Virus record (IMG/VR): IMGVR_UViG_3300026549_002476
DNA: 64,000 nucleotides
Source: a virus
Lineage: Duplodnaviria > Heunggongvirae > Uroviricota > Caudoviricetes
Strand: one strand, 5' to 3'
Shown here: positions 18,648-35,945 of the stretch, piece after piece
Numbering within the stretch: the stretch's first letter is position 1
How the letters are laid out: the number at the start of each line of letters is the position of its first letter
Notes under the pieces: model-generated
The model's input: only the letters and a program-made list of their open reading frames with translations
The model's database searches: none
What the model was told of the DNA's origin: nothing
Translations under genes and position numbers: made by a program

Positions 18648-18728
18648 AGATGGATACTGCATCATTGGGATGCAACCACGAGGATGGAATTATATAGGGT
18701 TAGCACAGGCAGAAAGTGAGGATAAGGA

Positions 18729-19184
18729 ATGACGAATGAACAAGCAAAGAAGATGCTCAAAGCAAAGTTGGAGTGCTTAAAGCGTGAAACAAGCGGAACA
18801 GATTTTGATTGCAATAATAGTAATTGTGATGAATGCTCATTATGCTATGAACAGGGCAATATGGGGGAACAGAAAGAAGCACTTGATATGGCAATCAAGG
18901 CATTAGAGCAACAGCCTTGTGGGGATTGTATCAGCAGAGAAACGGCGAGAAGAATAGTGGATAGTGGAAGAACAAGGCAACAAATGATTGACATGATACT
19001 TGCCACTCCACCCGTCATACCACAGCCGAAGATTGGGCGGTGGATATTTGTTGATAAAGCAAAAGAACACGCACATTGTTCTGAATGCGATTATGGAGAT
19101 GTAGATTTATTTAATGGTAGACCACATAATTATTGTCCTAACTGTGGAGCAAAGATGGAAAGTGAGGAAAGGAATGACTCATGA
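18729..19184 (+). CDS. Cys-rich zinc-ribbon protein, C-terminal Y-C-P-N-C-G-A-K-M motif
   Basis: RBS gtgaggataagg. CSEC…YCPNCGAKME tail shared with small proteins at 37.6-41.5 kb. Confidence 0.45.
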   Translation: MTNEQAKKMLKAKLECLKRETSGTDFDCNNSNCDECSLCYEQGNMGEQKEALDMAIKALEQQPCGDCISRETARRIVDSGRTRQQMIDMILATPPVIPQPKIGRWIFVDKAKEHAHCSECDYGDVDLFNGRPHNYCPNCGAKMESEERNDS

Positions 19185-19398
19185 ATTAAAGGTTCTTTCA
19201 GAGTATTATTGGAAAATTCCATGTGAAAAGAAAACTTTTGAATTGCGTAAAGATGATAGAGATTACAAAGTAGGTGACATTCTTGACTTAAAAGAATGGG
19301 ATGGTGAAAAATTTACTGGGCATCATGTACGCCGTGAAATAACCTACATCTTACGAAATTGCAAACAATATGGTATTGAAGATGGATCTAACTGGTAA
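19174..19398 (+). CDS. DUF3850-like (ASCH-related) small protein
   Basis: RBS gaggaaagg upstream of the ATG at 19174. KKTFELRKDDRDYKVGDILDLKEWDG…GHHVRREITYIL resembles the DUF3850 signature. Confidence 0.45.
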   Translation: MTHELKVLSEYYWKIPCEKKTFELRKDDRDYKVGDILDLKEWDGEKFTGHHVRREITYILRNCKQYGIEDGSNW

Positions 19399-20815
19399 AG
19401 AATTTGGGGATTGGAAAGTTTTGCATAAAGCAGAGAAGGATCGATACTGGACTTGTCAGTGTAAATGTGGTACAGTAAAAGACGTATTAGATTACTCTCT
19501 AAAAAGTGGTAAATCAAAATCTTGTGGTCATTGTAATAATCCATATATTCATGCAGGAGATAAGTTTAATCATTGGACAGTTTTAGGCTGGGATAAAGAT
19601 AGAAATACATGGAAATGTCAGTGTGACTGTGGAAATATAGGATATGTTAGTGCAACGTCTTTAGTTAAGGGTTACTCAAAGTCATGTGGCTGCCAGCAAG
19701 GAAAATTAAGGGCAGTAACTATGATAAGTCGTTATGGTGAAACGGCTACTAATAAAGTAAACAGCCAATGTATTCGTGATGGATGGCAAGCTGAAACCAT
19801 GTATGACAAGGATAGACTGAAAGAATTTATAGTTAACCTTGGATATAAACCAACAATTGAAGATTTGGCTAATTTACTTGGAGTTCAGAGAGCAGCAATG
19901 CTGAAAAGAATAAATACACTTGAACTAAGGGATTATATAAACTTTGAGCATGACTATGCCAAATCAAATGGCGAAGATGAACTTTTAGAATATATAAAGA
20001 GCATATGCAATAAAGAGATAAAGACTCATGTAAAAGATGTAATTAAACCATATGAGTTGGACATTTATATGCCAGAATTAAACCTCGCATTTGAGTTTAA
20101 TGGAGATTATTGGCATAGTGAAGTATTCAAAGATAAGAAATATCATCAAAATAAATTTCTCATGTGTACTAAGAAAAACATTCAACTTATACAGATTTTT
20201 GAGAATGAATGGGAGCTTAACAGAGATAAAATTGAAGCTTATATCAAAGATAAAATAAACCCTGAACATGTGTTATATGCTAGGAAATGTAAAGTAAAAT
20301 ACATAGATTCAAAAGATGCTGTAGATTTTGAGAACTTATATCATATAAGCGGCGGAGTAACTGCAGCAATTAATCTTGGAATTTATTATAATGACAAGTT
20401 AATCGGAGTAATGACTTTTAATAAATCAAGGTTTAACAGTAATTATCAGTATGAAATAATAAGAAGCTGTTATAAGGCTGGATATATAGTTGTTGGCGGA
20501 TCAGAAAGAATGATCAAGCAGTTTATAAAAGATTACAAGCCAAGAAGCATAGTAAGCTACTGTGATTTAAGCAAGTTTGTGGGTCTATCTTATTTGCACA
20601 TGGGATTTAAAATGAACCGAGTTACAGAGCCTAATTATGTTTGGATGAATTTAAACAACTCAGACATTAGAAGTAGATACCAGTGCATGAAGCAGAAATT
20701 AATAAAAAATGGTTGGGGTACAGAAGACCAAACTGAAAATGACATTATGCATAATCACGGGTATACAAAGATTTGGGGTTGCGGAAACGCAGAATATGTT
20801 TGGGTGGATGAATAA
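19370..20815 (+). CDS. multi-domain protein: two tandem Cys-rich zinc modules (W-x-C-x-C-x-C-G…S-C-G-[CH]) plus a Vsr/DUF559-like PD-(D/E)xK nuclease-like core and a further C-terminal domain; paralog of the next gene; possible free-standing homing-endonuclease-like element
   Basis: Repeats WTCQCKCGTV…SCGHC and WKCQCDCGNI…SCGC. YELDIYMPELNLAFEFNGDYWHS resembles Vsr/DUF559 cores. Collinear similarity with ORF 20818-22545. Confidence 0.4.
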   Translation: MVLKMDLTGKEFGDWKVLHKAEKDRYWTCQCKCGTVKDVLDYSLKSGKSKSCGHCNNPYIHAGDKFNHWTVLGWDKDRNTWKCQCDCGNIGYVSATSLVKGYSKSCGCQQGKLRAVTMISRYGETATNKVNSQCIRDGWQAETMYDKDRLKEFIVNLGYKPTIEDLANLLGVQRAAMLKRINTLELRDYINFEHDYAKSNGEDELLEYIKSICNKEIKTHVKDVIKPYELDIYMPELNLAFEFNGDYWHSEVFKDKKYHQNKFLMCTKKNIQLIQIFENEWELNRDKIEAYIKDKINPEHVLYARKCKVKYIDSKDAVDFENLYHISGGVTAAINLGIYYNDKLIGVMTFNKSRFNSNYQYEIIRSCYKAGYIVVGGSERMIKQFIKDYKPRSIVSYCDLSKFVGLSYLHMGFKMNRVTEPNYVWMNLNNSDIRSRYQCMKQKLIKNGWGTEDQTENDIMHNHGYTKIWGCGNAEYVWVDE

Positions 20816-20817
20816 GG

Positions 20818-22545
20818 ATGGAAAGTAAAAAGAAAAGATTAACTTCAAAAGACATAATAGGACATAGATTTGGAAGGCTTGTAGCTTTGTCATATGCTGG
20901 AGATGGCAAATATTTGTGCCAGTGTGACTGTGGAAATAAGAAGTTAATTGCCACATATAGCCTTACAAGTGGAGCAACACAATCTTGTGGGTGTTTAAGG
21001 CGTGAAGTAACTAGTAAAACTATGATGAAATATGATTTAACCGGACAGACATTTGGTGAATGGACTGTTATAGCTCATCATGGATCAGGCAGTTTATGGT
21101 TATGTCGATGTAGCTGTGGAAAAGAAAAACTTATAGCTGCAAGCCATTTATTAAGTGGAATTACAAAATCTTGTGGACATAATACAACGGGATTTAAGGA
21201 TTTAACAGGACAAAAATTTGGCAGACTTACAGTAATTAGTTACAATGGGCATAGAAGTTGGCATTGTAAGTGTGATTGCGACAGAGAGACTGATGTAGTA
21301 ACAGATAATTTAATTAATGGTCGAACTACATCTTGTGGGCATCATCTAAAGAACGAAGATCAGTTTATAGATATATCTGGAAGAACGTTTGGATACTTAA
21401 CAGCTATTAAATATGTTGGTGGAAATAAGTGGCTATGCAAATGTATTTGTGGAAATTATACTATTAAAGATTCACAGCATTTAAGAAGATCTGATACTAT
21501 ATCATGTGGGTGTAAAGAACCTAAAAAATGGACTGAGGATGAAATAATAGAAAAAATAAATGAATATATAAAGATAAATGGGGAAAGACCATATAGATAT
21601 GACTTATGTTCTTTGTTGAATCTTTCACATACTTCTGTAGAAAGATGGATACAAAGGTATAATTTGTATGAATATATTGGATCAACTTATAGAAGCAGAT
21701 ATGAAGAAGAAATAAATAAAATGTTTCCAACTAATTTTGTTAATGATAGGCATGAAATACCTGGGTATGAACTAGATCTATATTATCCAGAGCAGAGAGT
21801 AGCAATAGAGTTCAATGGGAATCTATGGCATTCAGACAGATATAAGGATAAAAATTATCATAAGAATAAAGCAATAACTTGTGGAAAAAATAATATAAAG
21901 TTAATAAGTATATTTGAATACGAGTGGGAAGATCCAAACAAAAAATCTAAAATTATTAATCTAATAAAAAGAGAACTTAACATAGATAAACCGAATATTA
22001 TATATGGAAGAAAAACTTATATACATACAATAGATAGTGACACAGCTAAAAATTTTCTTGAATTATATCATATAGATGGCAATGCAACATCTAGTATTCA
22101 AGTAGGGATGTTTTTTGATAATGAACTAATAGGGGTTATTACTCTTGGGAAACCAAGGTTTAATAATAAATATGAGTATGAAATAATAAGATTGTGTTGG
22201 AAAGATAATACAGCAGTTATTGGTGGGACTAACAAATTAATAAGATATGTTATTAAAAAATATAATATAAAATCTTTAATAACATATGCAGATTTATCAA
22301 AGTTTAATGGAATGTCCTATAAAAAGTTTGGGTTTAAAGTAGATGGTATAACTGATCCTAATTACATATGGTGGACATCTAATGGAAATGAAGTATTAAC
22401 AAGATATCAAACTCAAAAACATAAATTAATTCAATTAGGACTTGGTAAAGCAGATGAAACAGAAGAAGAAATCATGACAAAAATGGGATATAATAAAATA
22501 TATGATTGTGGCAATATGAGGTATACATGGATTAGAAATAATTAA
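20818..22545 (+). CDS. paralog of the previous gene with four Cys-rich zinc modules plus the same nuclease-like and C-terminal domains
   Basis: Four repeats of about 48 aa, each with a (D)LTGQ-FG-(R)L-T-V-I…W-x-C-x-C-x-C-G…S-C-G-[CH] pattern. YELDLYYPEQRVAIEFNGNLWHS core. Confidence 0.4.
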   Translation: MESKKKRLTSKDIIGHRFGRLVALSYAGDGKYLCQCDCGNKKLIATYSLTSGATQSCGCLRREVTSKTMMKYDLTGQTFGEWTVIAHHGSGSLWLCRCSCGKEKLIAASHLLSGITKSCGHNTTGFKDLTGQKFGRLTVISYNGHRSWHCKCDCDRETDVVTDNLINGRTTSCGHHLKNEDQFIDISGRTFGYLTAIKYVGGNKWLCKCICGNYTIKDSQHLRRSDTISCGCKEPKKWTEDEIIEKINEYIKINGERPYRYDLCSLLNLSHTSVERWIQRYNLYEYIGSTYRSRYEEEINKMFPTNFVNDRHEIPGYELDLYYPEQRVAIEFNGNLWHSDRYKDKNYHKNKAITCGKNNIKLISIFEYEWEDPNKKSKIINLIKRELNIDKPNIIYGRKTYIHTIDSDTAKNFLELYHIDGNATSSIQVGMFFDNELIGVITLGKPRFNNKYEYEIIRLCWKDNTAVIGGTNKLIRYVIKKYNIKSLITYADLSKFNGMSYKKFGFKVDGITDPNYIWWTSNGNEVLTRYQTQKHKLIQLGLGKADETEEEIMTKMGYNKIYDCGNMRYTWIRNN

Positions 22546-22561
22546 ATTATAGAGGTTGTGT

Positions 22562-25500
22562 ATGTATAGTAAAGGTAAATTTCATTCAAAAGGTAAAGAT
22601 TATGATGCTCTCGTAAATTACACGAAGAGTAGGACAGAAGTCCTGTTAATATCAAAAGGAACTATTGTATCAGCTTACAAAACTGATAAAACTGGGAATT
22701 ACAGCTTTGCAAGTATGGCTGCTCAGGATTTATTTAAGGTGGTATCAAAAGGTCTTGGCTATTGTAACTCTAAGAATGGAACACCTATGCCATTCGTTGG
22801 GTTAGGAGCAGTAACTAGACATGAGTTTAGCAAGATGAAGCTACACTATGATATTACTGAAATTAACCATGAGCTTGTGGAATGTGACATATCAAATAAT
22901 GAGACAGATGACAATGGAAGTTCTAAAATGACTCTTAATTTGTCTCATATTGATAAAGCTATTATTCCAAATAACATTGCATATGTTAAACTTACTGAAG
23001 TAAAAGATGTAAAAACTGTAGAAAATGCTGAAGAAGACCTTGACAATATAGTTACACGAAGTATTGAAGAGATTGCTCTAACTAAGGAAGACGGTGGAGC
23101 ATGGCTTAAGAACAAGAAATACTATATTGTCAATGATGACGCAACAGCTGAGCAGATTTTTGAATACCTTGACAATTATGATGGTGCTATTGCATATGAT
23201 ACAGAGACTACAGGGTTAAAGATTAACTGCTTTGGTAAAGTTGGTTCACATTATGAAAAGGAATTAGCAGAATATAATGCAAGTCACCCTGATGAAAAGA
23301 TTCGTGAGGACCGGCTTGTTGGGATTATTTTCTGTGTTGAACCGAATGTGAGCTATTATTTTCCAGTGTTTAACAGAAAGTTTAAGAATCTATATCAGGA
23401 TTTAAACAGTCCAATCCGTAAGAAAACTGTAGAGATCATTAAAGCAAGATATACAATTGGCGAGTTTAGGGATAGAGATTCTGACATGGCTAATTACATC
23501 AGAAACACCCCAGAGAATGAGTGGAGACTTGATGTAATTCTGATGGAACGTGTCAGAGATATTTTAAGCAAGAAGCATATTGTCACACATGGCGGAATTT
23601 TTGAGTGGCGCGTTGGATGGACTTATGAAATTGATACAAATATCTGCGATGACACGATGATTATTCATCAGTTAATTTATAAGTTTAGAAGTACAACGAG
23701 CAATGCAGGTGAGCCTTCTAACCTGAAGTATCTAGCTAAGCATGATCTTGGTGTTGACCAGTGGGAATTAAAGGATTTCTTCCCGAATTTCAAGGCTGAC
23801 GATACCGGACTTGTTAAAGAGCGTAAAGATGGTAAAGGGCCTAAAAAGGGAAGTAGAATTGATTTCTCATATATGGATTATGCTGGTACACAGATTTATG
23901 CACCAGCTGATGGAGACATGACTCTCGAGTTGTATTTGAAGTACAAGAAAGATATGCTTGAACATTTTAAGGACTTTGAGTATATCTATAATATTGAGAT
24001 TATTGTAACTTGTGCCATGGGTTATGTTGAGTTTTATGGACATAGAATTAATGAGAGTAAGATCAATGGTGCTCGTTTACAGACTGCCGCTGAAATAGTA
24101 GATGTAGAAGAGCAGATTAGACAAGCTATTAATTATGCTAGCCAAGATGAAATAAATGTACATAATCAGTTAAAGACGGCTATGACTGAGGCTGAAAAAG
24201 GCGATGTAAACGATCCAGCTATTTCTGGCAAGCTTGACGGGTTAGCTAAAAAACTTAGAGAAACAATTGATGCAAATACAGATCATGCTTTAAACATCAA
24301 TTCACCTGCACAGGTAGCTGCATTATTCTTTGATGTACTTGGTTATCCCGATCCAGATGGAAAGAGATCAGTGAGCAAGAAGGTTTACAAAGGTCTTGCA
24401 AAGGAAGTTGGGGATGACGGTAAACTGAAGTATCCAATCGCTGGTTTATATCAGAAATACAAGGCTAAGGTAACACTTCAAACAAAATTCTTTGATCAAT
24501 TGCAGTATTTCCAGTATCCAGAGGGGTTGATTTTTTCTGATTTTGGTCAGATCAGTACTGCTACAGGCCGTATGAGTTGCAAACATCCAAATTGCCAGCA
24601 GTACCCTAAAGTTATTACCAAGATCGTTGAGCCAAGACCTGGATACATTATGTTGGATGCTGATTATTCACAGATTGAGTATCGTGTCCTTACAGCATTA
24701 GCTCATAACTCTGGATTAAGAGAACTGTTTAGTAGTCCTGATAGTGATTATCATACACTTATGGCTTCTCTAATGTATGGTGTTCCATATGCAAGCGTGA
24801 CACCACAGATGAGATCATCTGCAAAGAGTTTCAATTTTGGTATACCATATGGCATGGGCTTTAAGTCATTAGCAATATTACTTCATGGAAACGCATCTCC
24901 AGAATCAGTAGATGACGCAAAAGTCAAATATGAAATGTATTTTAAGAACCAGCCAAACACTCGCAAATTCTTTGATAATGTTAAGGAACAAGCTCAGGTG
25001 TATGGATATACTAAAACAGCATTTAATCGTAGGAGATATTATAATTTTACATCAAAAGATGGAACAGTTAATAATGCAAAAAAGGCAGCAGCATTAAGAC
25101 AAGCAGGTAACGCTGTTATTCAAGGATGCCTCAGTGGTGAAACTAGGATACAAACGAAAGAATTAGGTATCATTAAAATTAAGGATGCAGTCAATACACA
25201 TCTACATGTATGGGATGGTAATACCTGGGCAGAAGGAGATGTACTTTATTCAGGAAAGAAACAGAAGTGCATTGTTACATTCAGTAATGGACAAAAGTTC
25301 ATTTGCAGTCCAATTCATAAGTTTCTTGTGAAGAGCCATAAGGGTAATACCAGGTTTGTAGAGTGTAAGGATCTGTTAACCAAAGCAAATTCAAAGAACC
25401 CTCATAGGATTGTGATTAATCCTAAGTATGAGAAGTCTGATTTTGTTTATTCTAGCAATTGGGCTAGAAGATATGATGAAATTAGTAACAATGCTAATAA

Positions 25501-27274
25501 TGCACATTTAGATGATGCAGATAACTCTTTTGATGCAGGAGTTGTACTTGGAAGACTGGCATCAGTTGGTACAATTGGAAAAAGAGAAGAAGGCGCATCT
25601 TACATTTTAAACTCTGTAGCAGAACATGAGAAGAATATAGTTCCTGAATTGAGAAGATGTTTGAGCTTTTACGGAGATGTAAAGGAACATATATTAAATA
25701 GAGAAGGCAAGAATGAGGCTATAGATAGAATGTACATTTATAGCAAGTCTCTTGTTGACGAAGTAAGCGAGCTTGATATTAAGCACCATATTAGCGATTT
25801 AATATTCCAAGACACTGAAATGCTTAGAGGTTTTTTGAGGGGAATATTTGATGGCGATGGCGGAATCATGGGAAAAACGATCACTTTGACTTTTGGTAAG
25901 CAGAGCGATTTTACAGAGTACATGAGAGATATTCAGAAGGCTCTTGCATTTTTTGGTATTAGAAGCAGAATATATGAATTTAAAGACTGCTATCATGTTA
26001 CAATTAAAGAGAATGATAACAATAGATTTTTGGACCTTATTGGATTTATGAATAAAGACAAGCAGGATAAAAGGGATGACATACAGCCAATTAGAGATGA
26101 GCATATTTTTGGAAGAATCCTTATTCCTGAATCCGTAGAGATCACTGACGAATGGATTGACATGTATGATGTGTGTAATACAACTAATGGTTACTATGTA
26201 GCTGACGGAATTGTAACACATAACACAGCTGCTGATATTTTTAAAATCAGCCTTGCTCGTAATTTTACATTTATTAGAAATCATAATCTTTATGGTAAAT
26301 TGTTAATTATAAATCTTATTCATGATGAGCAACTTATGGAAGTAGATGTGCAGCATTTAAATGCTCAGAGGATACTTGCAGAAGTTGGAAGAAACATGCA
26401 GTTCAGCTTGCCAGAGTTTCCACCTTTGTACATTGGTGCAGGTATTGGTAAAGCTTGGGGCACTGCTAAAGGCAAGATGGCAGAGATTCATCCGCTCTTG
26501 CTTGAGCAGTATACTAAAGAAGCTGAGAATATTCCGATTGAGAGAGCTGAAGCAACTTGGAATGATCCTAATAAAGTAATTGAGTACTTTGATGATAGAA
26601 ACTTAGAATTCAGACGTAAGAAAGTAGCTGATTACATTACAGATCCAAGCCATTGGAATCAGCCATTACACCCTGCAATTGGTGGTCTAATCAATCTTCA
26701 GTTTAATTATGGACGTGGTGGTGATGCTAAGGCTTATGTAGATGAAAATGGAAATCATGTGACAGATGCAGAATTTCTTGAAATGAACTTAGCAGACTTC
26801 ATTAAAGAAAATGGATTAAATGTTGATCCACATACATTCTTTGAGGACAAAGATCAAGTTCAGGCTGAAACACAAGATGAAGAAGAAGACAAAGAATACG
26901 ATGACGATGATGATGAAAATCCAGATGACATTGCAACATCAATTAGTGACGACCCAGATAAGGTATTTTCAGTAGTTGATGAATCTGATAAAACATTTGG
27001 ATCCTCTCTTCAAGACATTATATCTGTGTTTGGATGCTGTTTATTGGAAAATCAAAGAGTGTGTGGTATTGATTTAAGAGGTATGAGTAACAAAGGACGT
27101 AATAGCATGATTGATGCTATTTGTGAGTATGTATGTGAACCAACAGATAGTAAGGGATTACAGCTTGTGTTTCTTAAAGACGGAAACATCCTAGATAAAA
27201 CAGGGGTTTATGTTTCTGGAATCAATGGTTCTACAGCTGAAGCTGAATACAAGAAATTTAAAGCTTTACACTAA
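22562..27274 (+). CDS. polA: DNA polymerase I-like family A polymerase (3'-5' exonuclease plus polymerase), intein-containing, with about 300-aa acidic/Cys-containing C-terminal extension
   Basis: RBS agagg plus ATG at 22562. Exo motif IAYDTETTGL. Pol motifs LDADYSQIEYRVLTAL (A), KSFNFGIPYGMG (B), NAVIQG/TAADIFKISLA (Taq NMPVQGTAADLMKLAM), LIHDEQLMEV (C). Confidence 0.9.
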   Translation: MYSKGKFHSKGKDYDALVNYTKSRTEVLLISKGTIVSAYKTDKTGNYSFASMAAQDLFKVVSKGLGYCNSKNGTPMPFVGLGAVTRHEFSKMKLHYDITEINHELVECDISNNETDDNGSSKMTLNLSHIDKAIIPNNIAYVKLTEVKDVKTVENAEEDLDNIVTRSIEEIALTKEDGGAWLKNKKYYIVNDDATAEQIFEYLDNYDGAIAYDTETTGLKINCFGKVGSHYEKELAEYNASHPDEKIREDRLVGIIFCVEPNVSYYFPVFNRKFKNLYQDLNSPIRKKTVEIIKARYTIGEFRDRDSDMANYIRNTPENEWRLDVILMERVRDILSKKHIVTHGGIFEWRVGWTYEIDTNICDDTMIIHQLIYKFRSTTSNAGEPSNLKYLAKHDLGVDQWELKDFFPNFKADDTGLVKERKDGKGPKKGSRIDFSYMDYAGTQIYAPADGDMTLELYLKYKKDMLEHFKDFEYIYNIEIIVTCAMGYVEFYGHRINESKINGARLQTAAEIVDVEEQIRQAINYASQDEINVHNQLKTAMTEAEKGDVNDPAISGKLDGLAKKLRETIDANTDHALNINSPAQVAALFFDVLGYPDPDGKRSVSKKVYKGLAKEVGDDGKLKYPIAGLYQKYKAKVTLQTKFFDQLQYFQYPEGLIFSDFGQISTATGRMSCKHPNCQQYPKVITKIVEPRPGYIMLDADYSQIEYRVLTALAHNSGLRELFSSPDSDYHTLMASLMYGVPYASVTPQMRSSAKSFNFGIPYGMGFKSLAILLHGNASPESVDDAKVKYEMYFKNQPNTRKFFDNVKEQAQVYGYTKTAFNRRRYYNFTSKDGTVNNAKKAAALRQAGNAVIQGCLSGETRIQTKELGIIKIKDAVNTHLHVWDGNTWAEGDVLYSGKKQKCIVTFSNGQKFICSPIHKFLVKSHKGNTRFVECKDLLTKANSKNPHRIVINPKYEKSDFVYSSNWARRYDEISNNANNAHLDDADNSFDAGVVLGRLASVGTIGKREEGASYILNSVAEHEKNIVPELRRCLSFYGDVKEHILNREGKNEAIDRMYIYSKSLVDEVSELDIKHHISDLIFQDTEMLRGFLRGIFDGDGGIMGKTITLTFGKQSDFTEYMRDIQKALAFFGIRSRIYEFKDCYHVTIKENDNNRFLDLIGFMNKDKQDKRDDIQPIRDEHIFGRILIPESVEITDEWIDMYDVCNTTNGYYVADGIVTHNTAADIFKISLARNFTFIRNHNLYGKLLIINLIHDEQLMEVDVQHLNAQRILAEVGRNMQFSLPEFPPLYIGAGIGKAWGTAKGKMAEIHPLLLEQYTKEAENIPIERAEATWNDPNKVIEYFDDRNLEFRRKKVADYITDPSHWNQPLHPAIGGLINLQFNYGRGGDAKAYVDENGNHVTDAEFLEMNLADFIKENGLNVDPHTFFEDKDQVQAETQDEEEDKEYDDDDDENPDDIATSISDDPDKVFSVVDESDKTFGSSLQDIISVFGCCLLENQRVCGIDLRGMSNKGRNSMIDAICEYVCEPTDSKGLQLVFLKDGNILDKTGVYVSGINGSTAEAEYKKFKALH
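25127..26224 (+). mobile_element. intein (366 aa) with LAGLIDADG homing-endonuclease domain, inserted between Q-G and T-A-A-D of the polymerase
   Basis: In frame with polA. Begins CLSGET and ends VTHN followed by Thr. Internal FLRGIFDGDGGI and DAGVVLGRLASVG LAGLIDADG-type blocks. Extein halves re-join into the conserved PolA motif. Confidence 0.8.
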
Positions 27275-27305
27275 GTTGTATTAATAATAAGATAAATAAT
27301 ATAAT

Positions 27306-27364
27306 AGCATTGAAGTATAATAAGTATATTTAAAAATTAATTACTTCAATGCTATTTTTATTTT
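27306..27364 (+). terminator. hairpin/terminator after polA
   Basis: agcattgaagt … acttcaatgct 11-bp stem with a large loop, followed by atttttatttt. Confidence 0.45.
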
Positions 27365-27404
27365 AAGTATTAGAAGTAAAATACACATAATTGGTGATAC
27401 TTAA

Positions 27405-27893
27405 ATGGACAATAATAATACAATTGTAATGCCTGGGCATGATAATACAGGCGCTGATATGTTAAAACAATCTAATGCATTGGCTAGTGATCGTGAAAAG
27501 GTAAAGGATGCAATCTCTGGCAGAGAAGTTGATATTGTAATTATACCTAAGGAAAAAACTATTGATCCAAAGAATTACTTATTATACATAGCTAATTGCA
27601 AACTAAATCCTATACAAACAGGTGTATTAAAAATGTTAACTGTTAAGAATAGTGATATTGACGCAATTAATCAAATTGATGAAGAAGATAGAGTCACAGT
27701 TTACTTGTATAATAAGAATAAAGGTATTTTAAACATTGGAATAGGTAATGATAGACAATTAAGTCGATTGTTACCATTGATTAAAAAATATGATTTTGAT
27801 GATAAAATACATATTTATGTAAATGTTGAAGCAGGTAAGCCATTAAAAGAGCTTAATGAAGTCAATTTCTCTAAATTTAGATTAAGAATTTAG
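27405..27893 (+). CDS. hypothetical protein
   Basis: ORF with a modest RBS. Confidence 0.4.
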   Translation: MDNNNTIVMPGHDNTGADMLKQSNALASDREKVKDAISGREVDIVIIPKEKTIDPKNYLLYIANCKLNPIQTGVLKMLTVKNSDIDAINQIDEEDRVTVYLYNKNKGILNIGIGNDRQLSRLLPLIKKYDFDDKIHIYVNVEAGKPLKELNEVNFSKFRLRI

Positions 27894-27940
27894 CCTAGAT
27901 GTAGTCAAAGTATATTAAAAATTAAAATAGGAGGTTTGCT

Positions 27941-28372
27941 ATGAATGATAACACTAATATTAATAATATAAACTCTGAAAATACTGTGAATACTAAGGCA
28001 AAATCTGATCCAGAAATTGATAATTGTATGAATAATCTTATGAAGATGAAGTTTTCAGAGAAGAGTACAAAGGTAGCTGTTTCTTTTAGAAAAACTTGCT
28101 TTATTAGAGATTACGAAACGGAAGTTGTCGAGGCAGACACAGAAGTTACATTTGATCATGAAATTTCTGGGGCAGAAAGAGAGTTTGTAGCTACTGCACT
28201 TCAGGCTCAAATGGAATACGCAGGATATGCTGGTTTGAGAAGTAAAAAGCTTATTTCTGAAAAGGAGTTTGCAGAGCGCAAGAAGGATTTAGCTACTTCT
28301 GTAGTAAGCTTTGCAAACAAACTGGAACAGATTGAAGGGCCTGGAAGTGTAGCTAAATACTTTAAGGATTAA
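27941..28372 (+). CDS. hypothetical protein
   Basis: Strong RBS aggaggtt. Confidence 0.45.
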   Translation: MNDNTNINNINSENTVNTKAKSDPEIDNCMNNLMKMKFSEKSTKVAVSFRKTCFIRDYETEVVEADTEVTFDHEISGAEREFVATALQAQMEYAGYAGLRSKKLISEKEFAERKKDLATSVVSFANKLEQIEGPGSVAKYFKD

Positions 28373-28376
28373 AGCT

Positions 28377-29060
28377 ATGAGATATAACATTAAATGTGAA
28401 CCATTTCCAATAGTTGTATGCAATTTAAGTGATGGCGAGGAAATTATTACTGAAAGCGGAGTGATGGTTTGGATGTCTCCTAACATGGAGATGCAAACAC
28501 AAGCTGGTGGTATAGGTGGATTCTTTTCAAAAACATTATCTGGTGAACATGGATTTACTAATACTTATGTATCACATGGAAAAGGATTAATTACACTCGG
28601 AAGTCACTTTGCAGGACAAATAGTAGATATTGATATAACACCAGAAAAAGATTTTATACTTCAAAAAGGTGCTTTCTTAGGTATGGAATCTGGGGTCAAC
28701 ATGTCAATATTTTTCAGACCAAACCTTGTGACAGGAAGCTTTGGTGGTGAAGGGTTTATAATGCATAGACTTTCAGGGAACGGAAAAGTTTTTGCAGAAG
28801 TAGATGGGTCTTTGGTTAAATATCAGTTGGAACCAGGACAGCAGATGATAGTTAGCACAGGACATGTTATAGGTATGGATTCAACTGTTATAATGGACAT
28901 TAAAACAGTTGCAGGGTTGAAAAATAAATTGTTTGGCGGATATGGATTTTTCAATACTGTTTTAACTGGGCCAGGAGTTATTTATTTGCAGACAATGCCA
29001 ATTAGTAAGTTAGCAAGATCTATTATTCCATACTTACCAAGAGATGACAGTAAATATTAA
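28377..29060 (+). CDS. AIM24/TIGR00266 (DUF124) family protein
   Basis: Gly-rich repetitive beta pattern (GGIGGFFSK…GEGFIMHRLSGNGKVFAEVDGSLVKYQLEPGQQMIVSTGHVIGMD…GGYGFFNTVLTGPGVIYLQTMP) typical of this family. Confidence 0.6.
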   Translation: MRYNIKCEPFPIVVCNLSDGEEIITESGVMVWMSPNMEMQTQAGGIGGFFSKTLSGEHGFTNTYVSHGKGLITLGSHFAGQIVDIDITPEKDFILQKGAFLGMESGVNMSIFFRPNLVTGSFGGEGFIMHRLSGNGKVFAEVDGSLVKYQLEPGQQMIVSTGHVIGMDSTVIMDIKTVAGLKNKLFGGYGFFNTVLTGPGVIYLQTMPISKLARSIIPYLPRDDSKY

Positions 29061-29088
29061 AGACTAAAAGAATGACAGGTGTATTCTT

Positions 29089-29343
29089 ATGGAAGACAGA
29101 TCGGATAGATATGTAATGCTGGTTAATGACAGATGGCTCTTTGACAGAGAAAAGAACATTTGTTATCAGATTAGTTATAATCAGAATGGAGAGTATAGCA
29201 AGTATAAAGAAGCATTTAACATTACTTTTGATGATAATAACAATATGATTTTCAATAAGAAAATCAGAGTTCCACTTCTTATACTAAAGGAGGCATCGTA
29301 TCAGTCAACAAAACCAAGAAAGTTTGTGGAGGACAATGAGTGA
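29089..29343 (+). CDS. hypothetical small protein
   Basis: ORF with a weak RBS. Confidence 0.3.
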   Translation: MEDRSDRYVMLVNDRWLFDREKNICYQISYNQNGEYSKYKEAFNITFDDNNNMIFNKKIRVPLLILKEASYQSTKPRKFVEDNE

Positions 29344-30115
29344 AAATAGTATAAGAAACATAAAAAAATTGCATAGAAAGCCAAGAAAGAAAAAGGCTAG
29401 CACTAGGCATGATCTATATTATTCCGAAAGATTTCATGGGCATAGACAAAAGAAGAATAAGGAATATATAGATAAAATATTACAATCAAAAACAAGATTA
29501 ATGGTTGACATAACAAATTTTCATTGTACATACTGTGGAAGTGCAATGAAGCAAACTAAGATGATTGAAACTACTACAATTGCAAATAGTGAAGAACAGG
29601 AGAAAAGAGGCACAAAAATCATCGAAATTGAAGAATCAAGGATGCTGATTCTTCCAAAGAATGAGTTTTACATGGTTTGTCCTAAGTGTGGAGCCAGGTG
29701 CAGGGTTAAAAAGACAAATGGAAATAATTATAGAGTTATTTCCACACCAGCAGATGTACTTCTTAGAAAGCGTAGAGCTGAAGCACATTTCTATTTTAAT
29801 AGGCTTGTTAAATATGGAATAATAGACAGTGTGTATGATGCATATAACTGGTTAACTCAAGTTACTGGGATTAACATGTATGGTGTGACTACTCAAAGGC
29901 ACATCGGAGAAATGGGTAAAGCACTCTGTGAAAAAGTAATAACCGAGTCAGTAACTAAGTTATGTGAGAATTGGGATAAATGGCCAAAGTTGTTGCCAGT
30001 TTACAGGTCAAATGATAAAGATACTGGTAAAAATTTAAGTTATGTCAATAGTAATAATGAATTGAAACAAATGATAAGAGAAGCTAATAAGAAGTTTTCG
30101 GAAAGGACATCATAA
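29336..30115 (+). CDS. zinc-ribbon protein (C-x-x-C-G … C-P-K-C-G)
   Basis: RBS gtggagg plus ATG at 29336 (the track start at 29324 is a TTG). FHCTYCGSAMK and YMVCPKCGARCRV motifs. Confidence 0.4.
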   Translation: MSENSIRNIKKLHRKPRKKKASTRHDLYYSERFHGHRQKKNKEYIDKILQSKTRLMVDITNFHCTYCGSAMKQTKMIETTTIANSEEQEKRGTKIIEIEESRMLILPKNEFYMVCPKCGARCRVKKTNGNNYRVISTPADVLLRKRRAEAHFYFNRLVKYGIIDSVYDAYNWLTQVTGINMYGVTTQRHIGEMGKALCEKVITESVTKLCENWDKWPKLLPVYRSNDKDTGKNLSYVNSNNELKQMIREANKKFSERTS

Positions 30116-30121
30116 GTTAAT

Positions 30122-30913
30122 ATGCAAGCAATTGACAGCATGGAGAAATACACTGAAGAGTTTACTTCATATGTAAAAGATATGGAAGAACGTGCTGGTG
30201 ATAATAAGTTACAAGATTTTGCAAACTTAAGAAGATTTCCAATGGACATAATTAAGAAATCAGACATCTTTTATATTGAAGACGCAACTGAGATGCTTGT
30301 GCCTAAATACTTAAGTGAAGTTGATGACTTTGGAGTTATTTCTCCAACAAATAGAAAACCTATATTCCACAATAGATATGTAATTCCGATTAAGGATGTA
30401 AATGGGAATGTGCTAAACTTAGTTGGATACAGTCATGACGCAGATGAAAGATATGTTTATGGGACTGCCAAGTATTATAGACGTCGTGAAACAATGTATG
30501 GGCTTGAAAATTTGGAAATAGCATATGATTTAGGATATGCAATAGTGACTGAAGGTATTACTGATACTATTAGAGTGAGAAGCCTTGGATATCCAAATTG
30601 TTTTGCAATGTGTGGCACTCATAAAAGTGAGTTTATAATGAAACAGCTGAATAGATGCAGATATGGCGTGATTAAAATTCCAGACAGAGATGCACCTGGG
30701 CGTAGAGCATTGAAGGGTTGGGAGTGCAACCGGGGAGTTACATTATTTACATTTGTAACATATAAAGATATAGATGAAATGTGTGCTGATCCTGAACATC
30801 CAGATAATGAAAACATAGTTAAGGAATATATAGATGGATGCATAGAATGGTTAAAAACTCATGAACATAACGGAATCAAGTGTGAAAATGAAGAATTAAC
30901 AATAAACATTTAA
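30122..30913 (+). CDS. Toprim-domain protein, DnaG-type primase-like
   Basis: AIVTEGITDTIRV (Toprim E-G motif) and IKIPDRDAPGRRA (compare DnaG D-G-D-R-A-G-R-x-A). Confidence 0.55.
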   Translation: MQAIDSMEKYTEEFTSYVKDMEERAGDNKLQDFANLRRFPMDIIKKSDIFYIEDATEMLVPKYLSEVDDFGVISPTNRKPIFHNRYVIPIKDVNGNVLNLVGYSHDADERYVYGTAKYYRRRETMYGLENLEIAYDLGYAIVTEGITDTIRVRSLGYPNCFAMCGTHKSEFIMKQLNRCRYGVIKIPDRDAPGRRALKGWECNRGVTLFTFVTYKDIDEMCADPEHPDNENIVKEYIDGCIEWLKTHEHNGIKCENEELTINI

Positions 30914-31094
30914 AATTTAGGGGGTTATTAAAAATGATCTTTAAAGCAGCTATGATAGTAATTAGCAGTTTGCTTGCTTTTATAGCAGATGATGTAATCT
31001 AACATTGAGGTGAAGTATGAACTCACGTAACACTGATGGTTGGCATTGTGCAGATGATTGTGGAACAGATTGCAAAGGAAGAAGAATGTAAACT

Positions 31095-31481
31095 ATGCTG
31101 ACGCTGACAATTAAGAAGAAATGGTTTGACATGATTATGTCTGGAGAGAAAAAGGAAGAGTACCGGGAGATTAAGCCGTACTACGATTCCAGATTCCGAC
31201 ATGTTTGGCAGAGGAGCTTTGTAGGAGGCAAGGCACCACGGAAAATCAGGTTTCGCAACGGCTATTCCGCAGACTCACCGTCATTCATTGCGGCCTGCAC
31301 TTTGGATGTCGGGGAAGGGCAACCGGAATGGGGAGCAGAACCAGGTAAGCAGTATTATCGACTGCATATATTATCTGTAAATAATGAGAAAGATCCAAAA
31401 TGGTTTAAATTAGTCAATGAAAGTATAAATGAATATGAAGAAGTAAATCAAGCTGACATAATAGAAAAGTTTGACTTTTAA
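31095..31481 (+). CDS. ASCH-domain-like protein
   Basis: N-terminus MLTLTIKKKWFDMIMSGEKKEEYREIKPYY resembles the ASCH/PUA-like beta-barrel signature. The 5' two-thirds is conspicuously GC-rich. Confidence 0.45.
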   Translation: MLTLTIKKKWFDMIMSGEKKEEYREIKPYYDSRFRHVWQRSFVGGKAPRKIRFRNGYSADSPSFIAACTLDVGEGQPEWGAEPGKQYYRLHILSVNNEKDPKWFKLVNESINEYEEVNQADIIEKFDF

Positions 31482-33361: not shown

Positions 33362-33434
33362 AACATATAAGCCCGATGGTGGTGAATCTAGGGTGATCCT
33401 TAAATTATTTATATACTTAGGAGGAAATTTTATT

Positions 33435-35945
33435 ATGCCACAGGTAGTAAAAAGAGACAATCGAGTAGTTCAATTTGATGCGTCTAAAATTGAAAATGCA
33501 GTTTTGAAAGCATTCATTGACGTAGACAAGGAGGTGACGCCATTTGCAAGAGATAAGGCCCACAATATTGCAGTATATATTGAGGGTCAGGCTCAAGACA
33601 AAACACTGACAATTGAACAGATTCAGGATTACGTAGAGAATGGTTTAATGGCTACTAAGAGAAAAGATGTAGCCAGAGCTTACATGAGTTACCGAATGAA
33701 TAGAACGATAGCTCGTGAAAGAAAATCTTCTTTACACAAAGCCATTGAAGAGAAAATCTTGGCCAGTGATGTTAAGAATCAGAACGCCAATGTTGATGAA
33801 CACAGTTTTGGTGGTCGTAAAGGAGAAGCAGATAGTGTTTATATGAAGCAGTATGCTTTAAACTATCTTATCTCTGATAAGGCAAGATTCAATCATGAGA
33901 ATAACAGAATTTACATTCATGATCTTGATAGCTACGCAGTTGGTTCTCACAATTGCCTTACAGTACCATTTGATCACCTTCTGTCACATGGGTTCACAAC
34001 TCGCCAGACTGACGTTAGACCAGCAAGAAGTATCAGTACAGCAATGCAGTTGGTAGCAGTTATTTTCCAGCTACAGTCACTTGACCAGTTCGGTGGTGTA
34101 AGTGCAAGTCATATTGACACTTCGATGGTGCCATATGTAAGAATGAGCTTTAAGAAGCATTACATTACTTCTTATGTACTTGACTCAGATGATTTTGATA
34201 AGCTCAATGTTGATACAATGACTGAAGAAGAGCTTGATGACTTCATTGATGAGCGTAAAGATGAGTACATGAAGAAGTTAAACCTTACTGATTCAGATTT
34301 TACATTTGACAGTACAAAACTTGATGAACATCTCAAGAAGAAGGCAATACTTCTCACACGCAGGGAAGTTTATCAGGCAGTCGAAGCAACATTCCATAAC
34401 CTAAATACCTTGCAGAGCAGAAGTGGCAACCAGCTCCCCTTTACAAGCATTAATTTTGGATTGGATACTTCCCAAGAGGGTCGTTTAGTAACTCGTGCAC
34501 TTCTTGAGAAATCTATTGAGGGCGTTGGAAGTGTTCATAGAACATCAGTATTTCCTTGTTCCATTTTTCAAGTTAAGTCTGGCATTAACAAGTATCCGGA
34601 TGATCCGAACTACGACTTGTTTATGCTAGCTTTAAAGAGTACATCATTACGACTTTACCCAAATTATGCAAATGCAAATGTTAAGATGCAGCAGAATTGG
34701 GTTAAGATGGACAGGGAAGTTAAGCACAGAGTGATTAATGAGATGTCCGATGAAGATAAAAAGACATTAGCAATTAGATTAAAAGAGAATCCGAGTTTAC
34801 AGGAATCACTTCTTCTCGACTTACATGATGATGGTACATTCACAGTTCATGAAGAAGAAGTACCTATTGAAGTGTTCTCAACCATGGGATGCAGGACTCA
34901 GAACGGCTTTGATTGTTGGGCTGAACATTCATTTAGAGAGAATGTGGCTCATGTAATTAAAGACGGAACATTGTATGATAATTATGTATCTGGAGCACAG
35001 AAAGATGGACGTGGAAACATTTGTCCAGCTACAATAATTCTTCCTACACTTGCTATGGAGGCAAGAGAGAAGGCAGGAGATGGAGCAACTGAAGATGAAC
35101 TTGTAGAAACTTTTATGAATATACTTTCAGTTGCACTTGATGACACTAGGGATGAATTGATGGAGCGTTTCGAGCATATTTGTTCACAGTCAGCTAAGTC
35201 AGCTCCGTTTATGTATCCTAATAACACAATGTATGGATATGTACCTGCTGAAGGAATTCGTTCAGCATTACGCCATGGGACATTAGCCGTAGGTCAGTTG
35301 GGTATAGCAGAAACACTTCAGCTTCTGATTGGTTGTGATCAGACTAATCCAAAGGGTTTGGCATTAGCTGAAAGAATTGAACAGCTTTATGAAAAGAAAT
35401 GTAACGAGTTTAAAAAGAAGTATCATTTGAATTTTGGAGTATACTTCACCCCAGCAGAGAACCTGTGTTATACTGCAATGCTTAAGTTCCAGAGTAAGTA
35501 TGGCAAGATTAAGGGTGTATCAGACAAGGATTTCTTCACAAACAGCATGCATGTGCCAGTTTGGGATAAGATTGATCCATTTAAGAAAATTGACATTGAA
35601 TCTAAATTAACTAAGTATAGTACAGCTGGATGCATTACTTACATTGAACTTGACAATAATTGTCGTAACAACTTAAAAGTGTTGGAGCAGATGGTAGTTT
35701 ATGCCATGGATCATGATGTTCCATACTTTGCAATTAATGTGCCGAATGACACATGTTTGGATTGCGGTTATACTGGTGAGTTTAATGATCATTGTCCAGT
35801 GTGTGGAAGTAAACATATTCAACAGTTACGACGTGTAACTGGCTATCTTACTGGCAATTACACAACAGCATTTAATAAAGGTAAGCAAGAAGAAGTTAGG
35901 ATGCGCTATAAGCATTCAAATAGCTTAAGTAACTGGAATAAATAA
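33435..35945 (+). CDS. nrdD: anaerobic ribonucleoside-triphosphate reductase (class III RNR)
   Basis: RBS ggagga plus ATG at 33435. N-terminal ATP-cone (VVKRDNRVVQFDASKIENAV). C-terminal Zn ribbon CLDCGYTGEF…CPVCGS and glycine-radical motif RRVTGYL. Confidence 0.85.
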   Translation: MPQVVKRDNRVVQFDASKIENAVLKAFIDVDKEVTPFARDKAHNIAVYIEGQAQDKTLTIEQIQDYVENGLMATKRKDVARAYMSYRMNRTIARERKSSLHKAIEEKILASDVKNQNANVDEHSFGGRKGEADSVYMKQYALNYLISDKARFNHENNRIYIHDLDSYAVGSHNCLTVPFDHLLSHGFTTRQTDVRPARSISTAMQLVAVIFQLQSLDQFGGVSASHIDTSMVPYVRMSFKKHYITSYVLDSDDFDKLNVDTMTEEELDDFIDERKDEYMKKLNLTDSDFTFDSTKLDEHLKKKAILLTRREVYQAVEATFHNLNTLQSRSGNQLPFTSINFGLDTSQEGRLVTRALLEKSIEGVGSVHRTSVFPCSIFQVKSGINKYPDDPNYDLFMLALKSTSLRLYPNYANANVKMQQNWVKMDREVKHRVINEMSDEDKKTLAIRLKENPSLQESLLLDLHDDGTFTVHEEEVPIEVFSTMGCRTQNGFDCWAEHSFRENVAHVIKDGTLYDNYVSGAQKDGRGNICPATIILPTLAMEAREKAGDGATEDELVETFMNILSVALDDTRDELMERFEHICSQSAKSAPFMYPNNTMYGYVPAEGIRSALRHGTLAVGQLGIAETLQLLIGCDQTNPKGLALAERIEQLYEKKCNEFKKKYHLNFGVYFTPAENLCYTAMLKFQSKYGKIKGVSDKDFFTNSMHVPVWDKIDPFKKIDIESKLTKYSTAGCITYIELDNNCRNNLKVLEQMVVYAMDHDVPYFAINVPNDTCLDCGYTGEFNDHCPVCGSKHIQQLRRVTGYLTGNYTTAFNKGKQEEVRMRYKHSNSLSNWNK

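Follow-up and report, generated by a model that had tools for sequence, protein, structure and literature searches.

A gene for a family A DNA polymerase on a 64,000-nucleotide (nt) stretch of viral DNA (IMG/VR record IMGVR_UViG_3300026549_002476, hereafter the window) is interrupted by an in-frame insert that we read, with a probability of about 0.93, as a canonical class 1 intein with a two-motif LAGLIDADG domain. All coordinates are positions in this window, and all features lie on the + strand. The insert, at positions 25127 to 26224, translates without a stop codon into 366 residues (CLSGET...GIVTHN) in frame with both flanks, and the junctions read ...NAVIQG^insert^TAADIFKISLA (a caret marks a junction throughout). 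A LAGLIDADG intein had been proposed at these 366 codons in an initial annotation of the window, the coordinates and content of which proved exact. For annotation, the gene is to be read as a 1204-amino-acid (aa) polymerase plus a 366-aa intein and not as a 1570-aa polymerase with an odd insertion. The features of the gene and its insert are as follows.

22562 to 27274, + strand: family A DNA polymerase gene, encoding a precursor of 1570 aa including the intein; matched by DNA_pol_A and NCBIfam Pol I models
22562 to 25126, + strand: N-extein, 855 aa, last residues ...NAVIQG; 98.8% nt identity up to the junction with L001, a contig carrying an intein-free allele
23198 to 23218, + strand: exonuclease motif DTETTGL
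24662 to 24685, + strand: polymerase motif A, DYSQIEYR
24812 to 24853, + strand: polymerase motif B, RSSAKSFNFGIPYG
25127 to 26224, + strand: predicted class 1 intein with embedded LAGLIDADG endonuclease domain, 366 aa; a clean 1098-nt indel relative to L001
25127 to 25426, + strand: N-terminal Hint subdomain with blocks A and B and a TIGR01445 match; kept in every mini-intein variant
25127 to 25144, + strand: block A, C1-L-S-G-E-T; Cys1 codon TGC at 25127-25129
25289 to 25324, + strand: block B, G55...S61-P-I-H64
25427 to 26116, + strand: LAGLIDADG homing-endonuclease domain, about residues 101-330; the part missing in mini-intein relatives
25544 to 25570, + strand: LAGLIDADG motif 1, V140-L-G-R-L-A-S-V147-G148; Val147 codon GTT at 25565-25567
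25835 to 25861, + strand: LAGLIDADG motif 2, L237-R-G-I-F-D-G-D244-G245; Asp244 codon GAT at 25856-25858, intact
26117 to 26224, + strand: C-terminal Hint subdomain with blocks F and G; kept in every mini-intein
26156 to 26182, + strand: block F, I-D-M-Y-D348-V-C-N-T
26195 to 26224, + strand: block G, Y-V-A-D-G-I-V-T-H365-N366
26225 to 26227, + strand: +1 extein nucleophile Thr (ACA)
26225 to 27274, + strand: C-extein, 349 aa plus stop codon, TAADIF..., including motif C; 97.7% identity with L001
26315 to 26332, + strand: polymerase motif C, LIHDEQ

A single open reading frame (ORF) encloses the insert. The frame called mechanically (22556-27274) begins at TTG 22556; the likely start is ATG 22562, which has GAGG just upstream and gives a length in agreement with P0001, a 1570-aa database protein from a 400,213-bp contig that is 100% identical to the window polymerase. 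Pfam DNA_pol_A (PF00476) matches the gene with an E value of 4e-61, and NCBIfam Pol I models match it too. Against PF00476 the unspliced ORF gives two stretches and 207 bits, whereas the spliced extein gives the single stretch expected of a contiguous PolA, from profile position 10 to 380 (of 381) and with 231 bits. Taq, Klenow, and Bst structures match the extein with E values from 1e-41 to 1e-30. The alignment to KlenTaq (4bwj; E = 3e-41) is gap-free at the junction ('agnaviqgtaadifkisla' versus 'afnmpvqgtaadlmklam') and places the insertion at the Q-G^T-A-A-D motif, as had been claimed, between Taq G755 and T756 and 29 residues ahead of the motif C Asp785 (counted from the Taq C-terminus in the alignment). 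With motifs A, B, and C located and the junction aligned to KlenTaq, the insert thus divides the polymerase palm between motifs B and C. Excision was expected to re-create NAVIQG-TAADIFKISLA, and P0002, a natural 1204-aa intein-free polymerase encoded on L001 and 99% identical to the window extein, has the same join, but with Ser at +1. The C-extein ends in a C-terminal extension of ~270 aa with an acidic tract. A megablast search of deposited phage genomes with the polymerase gene returned zero matches, and the best deposited phage PolA relative is at most 36% identical (tblastn), so an annotated close relative was absent for comparison.

The N-terminal Cys, the C-terminal His-Asn followed by Thr, and the LAGLIDADG blocks named in the initial annotation are all present. 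Residues C1, S61, H64, D348, H365, and N366 do not vary across the 67 full-length relatives that were aligned, and both Cys1 and the +1 Thr occur in all 116 occupied alleles described below. At the protein level, the most conserved parts of the insert are its N-terminal ~100 and C-terminal ~36 residues, which together form a Hint fold. The Pfam profile LAGLIDADG_3 scores 36.9 bits on the insert (cut-off, 22.5), and its endonuclease part is hit by NCBIfam models for RFC, RNR, and RNA polymerase subunits that contain inteins. PI-PfuI (1dq3) was the sole significant sequence match in the PDB (E = 1.4e-4, residues 231-356), and in a tblastn search of phage genomes the Hint regions of phage ribonucleotide-reductase inteins matched the N-terminal Hint part. 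An AlphaFold2 model of the intein, built from a 27-sequence alignment, had a pLDDT of 93.7 and a pTM of 0.93. The ten best Foldseek matches of this model in the PDB are all endonuclease-bearing inteins (among them 7qsu, 7qss, 1dq3, 7qst, 1vde, and 2cw7; E values from 3e-16 to 1e-8), with TMq of 0.52-0.65 and a probability of 1.0 for matches to whole inteins; the next matches are the monomeric LAGLIDADG enzymes I-DmoI, I-SceI, and I-Tsp061I.

Some results weigh against the intein assignment. Of the Pfam models proposed as a check, LAGLIDADG_3 exceeded its threshold but PF14890 (Intein_splicing) reached 24.4 bits, under its cut-off of 35.8 (E = 2.9e-5). TIGR01445 (intein_Nterm) likewise gave 22.2 bits over residues 1-68, under its cut-off of 24.5 (E = 2e-4). 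Block B carries Ser (S-x-x-H), Thr being commoner, and splicing and cleavage are both predictions from conserved residues and a modelled fold. Precomputed PF14890 matches are present on many homologs, and we judge Ser in block B in place of the usual Thr to be a conservative variant. Class 3 inteins need no nucleophile at position 1 and form the branch at a block F Cys (F:4), part of a Trp-Cys-Thr triad. This class was ruled out for the window element, as Cys1 is invariant and block F position 4, which by intein motif numbering we take to be the Y-D-V position, is Asp348 and not Cys.

By standard intein chemistry, the 1570-aa precursor would be translated whole, and an N-S acyl shift would occur at Cys1, helped by the block B Ser-x-x-His. 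The thioester would be attacked by Thr+1 to give a branched intermediate, after which Asn366, helped by His365 and the block F Asp348, would cyclise and free the 366-aa intein. An O-N shift would then yield the 1204-aa polymerase with its QGTAAD motif whole.

Occupancy of the insertion sites was determined in the 120 best homologs of the window polymerase. An insert was carried at the identical site by 116 of these, always as QG^C...HN^T; 60 inserts are 366-367 aa long and ~40 are 139-190 aa, with a few in between. The deletions in these mini-inteins are heterogeneous and all fall within residues ~69-334, the splicing ends being kept. Because they differ from one another and are limited to the endonuclease domain, the sequences imply several independent conversions to mini-inteins. 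A search for intein-less relatives, which had been suggested earlier, identified four empty homologs (P0002, P0003, P0081, and P0101) and a further empty allele on L007, an IMG/VR viral contig of 203 kb. When the intein only was used as a query, all informative matches were PolA fragments with (I/V)QG^C...HN^[T/S/C]AAD, including some on Acidobacteriota-labelled contigs, and distant PolA lineages were occupied at the same site with T, S, or C at +1. Since all of these matches are PolA with the same junction, the element is, by sequence, a member of a widespread site-specific ('allelic') PolA intein family.

The closest polymerases differ in what they carry. Contig L001 aligns to the window over 19372-25127 (98.8% identity) and 26226-31379 (97.7%) and is without exactly 25127-26224 (1098 nt) at the junction. 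The polymerase P0003, encoded on contigs L002 and L003, is ~98% identical to that of the window, is also without the QG^TAAD intein, and contains an HNH-type intein of 415 aa that is inserted at KHPN^C, 89 codons upstream. One phage population (~96-99% DNA identity) holds empty, LAGLIDADG-intein, and HNH-intein alleles of one gene, which gives an unusually full natural view of the homing cycle within a single huge-phage population, and the dynamics of intein gain, loss, and decay are testable in public gut metagenomes.

The form of LAGLIDADG motif 1 in this family is LGRLAS-D-G. In the 67-relative alignment, position 147 is Asp in 64 relatives and Val in the window allele only; the metal-binding acidic residue is kept in motif 2 (Asp244) and missing in motif 1 (Val147). 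Five independently assembled alleles with >99% identity (JGI, ENA, and Logan data) bear identical intein junctions, and their residues at positions 147 and 244 form a series: D/D in P0123; V/D in P0001 (the window allele), P0121, and P0122; and V/N in P0124. A sequencing error at Val147 was ruled out, as independently assembled near-identical alleles share it. Among these alleles, 13 amino-acid sites are variable, of which eight lie in intein residues 118-263 (binomial P = 0.0035); the splicing residues are untouched by all 13. Catalysis draws on one residue from each LAGLIDADG helix, with each domain cutting a single strand (PMC3017599), so that with Val147 the window nuclease has most likely lost its activity or can at best nick DNA. 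Double-strand cleavage has probably been lost. The description of the element as an intein with a homing endonuclease therefore holds for its LAGLIDADG domain and fold, but the first catalytic Asp is replaced: descent and fold place the window copy in the family, and it is predicted to lack double-strand nuclease activity. What is added here to current understanding, none of which is overturned, is at the population level, namely, three allelic states of one gene and a three-step decay of the nuclease.

In its original spread, the intein would have moved by homing, with the endonuclease cutting the intein-free QG^TAAD-coding site during co-infection and repair copying the intein in. The window allele would represent a late stage of the homing cycle, in which the nuclease is decaying while the splicing domain is still under selection. 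Some points bear on this history, for or against. An endonuclease might in principle tolerate Val at the catalytic position or compensate for it. Divergence is of limited help: the nonsynonymous rate (dN) of the intein against the outgroup contigs L004 and L005 is 0.18-0.20, only slightly lower than the 0.25-0.27 of the polymerase core (0.32-0.38 for the whole extein), and dN alone is usable here, as the synonymous rate (dS) is saturated. Identity to the window intein and identity to its extein are weakly correlated (r = 0.28): the inteins most similar to that of the window (74-76%) interrupt polymerases of only 61-63% identity, and the closest polymerases (98-99%) are without the intein. These values point to horizontal movement of the intein combined with long-term purifying selection, and as the intein is barely less diverged than the polymerase core, the evidence for transfer is suggestive rather than strong. 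The extein differs from L001 at 79 nucleotides and 21 amino acids, and is clearly under purifying selection.

The substitutions around the junction fit the latest change having been either a gain or a loss of the intein. The flanks presumed to form the two halves of the homing site are as follows.

25106 to 26227, + strand: junction flanks, presumed homing-site halves, GGT AAC GCT GTT ATT CAA GGA^ACA in the window

The empty alleles L001 and L002 read GGC AAC GCT GTG ATC CAG GGA^TCA, with TCG in L002, so that the +1 residue of both is Ser (TCA/TCG). The differences fall at positions 25108, 25117, 25120, 25123, and 26225, and the window is unlike both empty alleles at all five. The outgroups L004 to L007, occupied and empty alike, have Thr at +1 and mostly the third-position states of the window. 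Only L001 and L002 have the GGC, GTG, ATC, and TCA states, each an AT-to-GC change against a genomic GC content of 33%. Polarised by these outgroups, the derived 5-nt patch is therefore assigned, from the sequences compared, to the empty alleles and not to the window. Co-conversion tracts brought into the window with the intein were considered and dropped, as four outgroups place the unusual states in the empty alleles. Two explanations of the patch fit equally: the target site may have escaped recognition, or the intein may have been lost precisely by conversion from an unsampled empty donor. The sites of L001 and L002 (GTG ATC CAG GGA^TCA GCT) and those of L006 and L007 are candidate targets of the endonuclease.

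Two window-specific clusters of substitutions relative to both L001 and L002 were identified elsewhere in the gene, with six substitutions within 19 nt at 24643-24661 and 10 within 28 nt at 26525-26552, where several amino acids are altered (E958I, P961S, A965T, and A967T). Both resemble short tracts acquired by gene conversion from a divergent allele of the polymerase. Because of these clusters, patchy recombination is considered general in the polymerase gene and not peculiar to the junction.

Of the other readings, that of an intein that is fully mobile today, with an endonuclease active despite Val147 and a window allele that is a recent product of homing, is unlikely, though it has several observations on its side. 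The nearest polymerase alleles (98-99%) are without the intein, which indicates recent gain or loss; Asp244 of motif 2 is intact; the D147 allele P0123 is still circulating; and LAGLIDADG enzymes mutated at a single site can act as nickases that promote recombination (PMC3017599). However, Val is unable to ligate the catalytic metal, and Asp is found in 64/67 relatives. The sister allele P0124 is additionally without Asp244, the endonuclease domain has more than its share of the recent amino-acid changes (P = 0.0035), and in the closest empty alleles the derived 5-nt patch, which extends into the +1 codon, lies where recognition is presumed to occur. We therefore favor a decaying endonuclease within an intein that is predicted to splice.

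A quite improbable extension of the favored reading is that the phage has come to use the Hint part to control its replicative polymerase after translation, for example by splicing that depends on redox state or other conditions in an anaerobic gut host. Such control would explain why an intact splicing core is found in 116/120 homologs, often as a mini-intein, long after decay of the endonuclease; the same pattern is explained by a simple inability to delete the intein precisely.

It is very unlikely that the insert is intein-derived and no longer splices, being either a retained domain or part of a non-functional polymerase copy. The splicing-domain models remain under their curated thresholds, the endonuclease part is visibly decaying, and splicing is here a prediction from sequence and model, all of which would suit such a relic. 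Against it, the catalytic splicing residues are invariant in the 116 occupied alleles and in distant lineages, and the Hint parts have been spared by recent substitutions. In Taq, the motif at which the insert interrupts the palm runs on without a break, so a polymerase that kept the insert should be inactive. The extein shows clear purifying selection, both in the few amino-acid relative to nucleotide differences from L001 (21 versus 79) and in dN of 0.25-0.38 against L004 and L005, with dS saturated.

LAGLIDADG ORFs are common in group I introns, and a self-splicing RNA intron (group I or II) that contains such an ORF and is removed from the mRNA was weighed, a group I intron having been named as the refuting alternative in the initial annotation. 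Huge gut and crAss-like phages are, moreover, rich in group I introns in replication genes (PMC12880540, PMC7886860). The window insert, however, is stop-free, in frame, and bounded exactly between codons by Cys1 and His-Asn^Thr. Its ends are the parts most conserved at the protein level, form a Hint fold, and are kept exactly in the minis. No Rfam 15 intron family was matched at an E value of ≤1 over positions 22000-28000, where two chance snoRNA-like matches were the only ones returned. An intron is thus extremely improbable. An assembly artefact, in which a chimeric contig put a foreign intein into the polymerase gene, is conceivable in a metagenomic assembly where strains with and without the intein do coexist, but can practically be discounted, since the same junctions occur in five independent near-identical assemblies (JGI, ENA, and Logan) and in 116 more distant homologs.

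The predicted intein resembles the solved structures TliVMA/PhoVMA (7qsu, 7qss, and 7qst), PI-PfuI (1dq3), PI-SceI (1vde), and PI-TkoII (2cw7) in its Hint fold, inserted two-motif LAGLIDADG nuclease, Cys1, and terminal His-Asn. It differs in sequence (10-17% identity) and in host, those of the solved elements being V-ATPase, RNR, and PolB. Its 366 aa make it smaller than the solved structures, which have 430-540 aa, and it has Thr at +1 and Val for the first catalytic Asp. A compact conserved Hint core, natural mini-inteins of ~140 aa, and a Thr+1 junction may be of interest to protein engineers.

PolA is named among known intein hosts in the general text of surveys (Novikova et al. 2016, PMC4760082; PMC5874633). 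As described there, bacterial PolA inteins share with the window element the host family and, like most inteins, a position in a catalytic motif of a replication protein; their hosts are bacterial, whereas here the host is the polymerase of a huge phage, which has no more than 36% identity to any PolA deposited for a phage. The PolA intein literature yielded no description of the QG^TAAD insertion point in its general statements, which are distinct from the site tables of the surveys. The PolB inteins of Thermococcales and haloarchaea (sites a-d; PMC4760082) are also LAGLIDADG inteins in polymerase catalytic motifs with several points per gene, but their polymerases are of family B, not A, with an unrelated fold family, non-homologous sites, and archaeal hosts.

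Closer in setting are the Jug phages, gut phages of 360-402 kb with a GC content of 27-30%, in which polymerase genes are reported to be interrupted by endonucleases and inteins and nrdD to be fragmented in most genomes (PMC12880540). More generally, in huge gut phages and zeta/delta crAss-like phages the genes for DNA polymerase, nrdD, and terL have been invaded repeatedly by inteins, introns, and homing-endonuclease genes, with LAGLIDADG domains 'inside other genes' (PMC12880540, PMC7886860). The window shares with these a large gut-type genome and an interrupted polymerase, and an identical polymerase lies on a 400-kb contig. Membership in the Jug phages, suggested by that contig, was not supported, as the GC content of the window is 33.6% versus 27-30%; its nrdD is also intact and not fragmented. 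PolA as an intein host and the abundance of inteins in huge and crAss-like phages were already known; the papers on these phages report the phenomenon in bulk, without this site, an allelic series, or a spectrum of mini-inteins.

The QG^TAAD site is not the only intein insertion point in this polymerase family, which has at least three. One region is empty in the window.

24575 to 24595, + strand: second intein hotspot, empty in the window, with insertion points S674^C675 and N679^C680 in ATGRMSCKHPNCQQYP

An intein of the form Cys1...VHN^Cys was found at S674^C675 in 20 of the 120 homologs; those of full size have HNH_3, and the others are minis. The 415-aa intein of P0003 is inserted five residues downstream, at N679^C680, and is homologous to the S674^C675 intein over its full length (~50% identity). 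Cys at position 680 is limited to the P0003 lineage and a few others. Homologous inteins at points 15 nt apart suggest, on these comparisons, site slippage or ectopic homing.

A different arrangement was seen in a distant PolA lineage (P0127 to P0138, on contigs of up to 207 kb), in which 468-aa ORFs comprise the intein and C-extein only. These open with 'MV[IV]C-SGLSG...', three codons ahead of the intein-like Cys, and sister proteins of 597-609 aa contain the N-extein junction QG^C. The polymerase gene of this lineage may be fragmented at the intein N-junction by another mobile element, by a frameshift, or as a truly split gene.

Two paralogous genes precede the polymerase gene in the window.

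19370 to 20815, + strand: upstream gene 1, 481 aa; phrog_3339 'homing endonuclease' (E = 7e-92); Zn-ribbon repeats, helix-turn-helix, Vsr/REase-like motif, and Mom-like GNAT domain
20818 to 22545, + strand: upstream gene 2, 575 aa, a paralog of gene 1; phrog_3339 (E = 2e-81) and phrog_1384, Mom-like (E = 3e-12)

Their products share 36% identity (tblastn), and PHROG families named 'homing endonuclease' and 'HNH endonuclease' match both end to end. Pfam detected no HNH domain in either, the Mom match is weak, and PDB sequence and NCBIfam searches were uninformative. The N-terminus of these proteins consists of repeated Cys-rich Zn-ribbon-like modules and the C-terminal domain is Mom-like, which was recognised because of structure prediction only: the AlphaFold2 model of the gene 1 product (pLDDT 87) had phage Mu Mom (8bv8) as its best Foldseek match (E = 7.5e-7), followed by GNAT acetyltransferases. 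The middle of both proteins contains an invariant D-Y-P...E-x-N-G-x2-W-H motif, which we interpret as Vsr/REase-like from the motif itself and from PF18741 matches in three homologs.

More than 845 homologs of the upstream genes lie on huge-phage-sized contigs. Both genes are 5' of the polymerase in the window, L001, and L002; L005 has one on each side, L004 has a Zn-ribbon fragment only, and L006 and L007 have none. This variable position is consistent with a mobile gene. The proposal of two free-standing endonuclease-like neighbors at 19370-22545 is thus borne out by PHROG names and variable position but not by an HNH domain, and the C-terminus is Mom-like GNAT; 'free-standing endonuclease' is an annotation-level label that leaves the Mom-like domain unexplained. 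The wider notion of a selfish-element hotspot holds best for the polymerase gene itself, with its three or more intein points, and less well for the neighbor genes. Just 5' of these genes, a 716-nt segment (18656-19371) is missing from L001 and L002, which are 97-99% identical elsewhere, and thus represents an indel polymorphism; its two small ORFs are at 18729-19184 (Zn-ribbon-like) and 19114-19398 (DUF3850, E = 9e-21).

Downstream, nrdD (33393-35945) has ATP-cone, NRDD, and glycine-radical domains, and neither an intron nor an intein was found in it; an intein suggested by a two-stretch Pfam match was ruled out, as the gap is a short non-conserved linker at ~residues 432-493. Neither tRNA genes nor a hallmark structural gene were found in the 64-kb window. 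Its 29 ORFs of ≥250 aa are all on the + strand, and most of the large proteins are without a Pfam or PHROG match (for example, those encoded at 1414-5337, 53554-57207, and 57355-59235). Identical or related polymerases occur on contigs of 200-600 kb, one of which is an IMG/VR viral contig, and these sizes fit a replicon that is an uncultivated huge phage.

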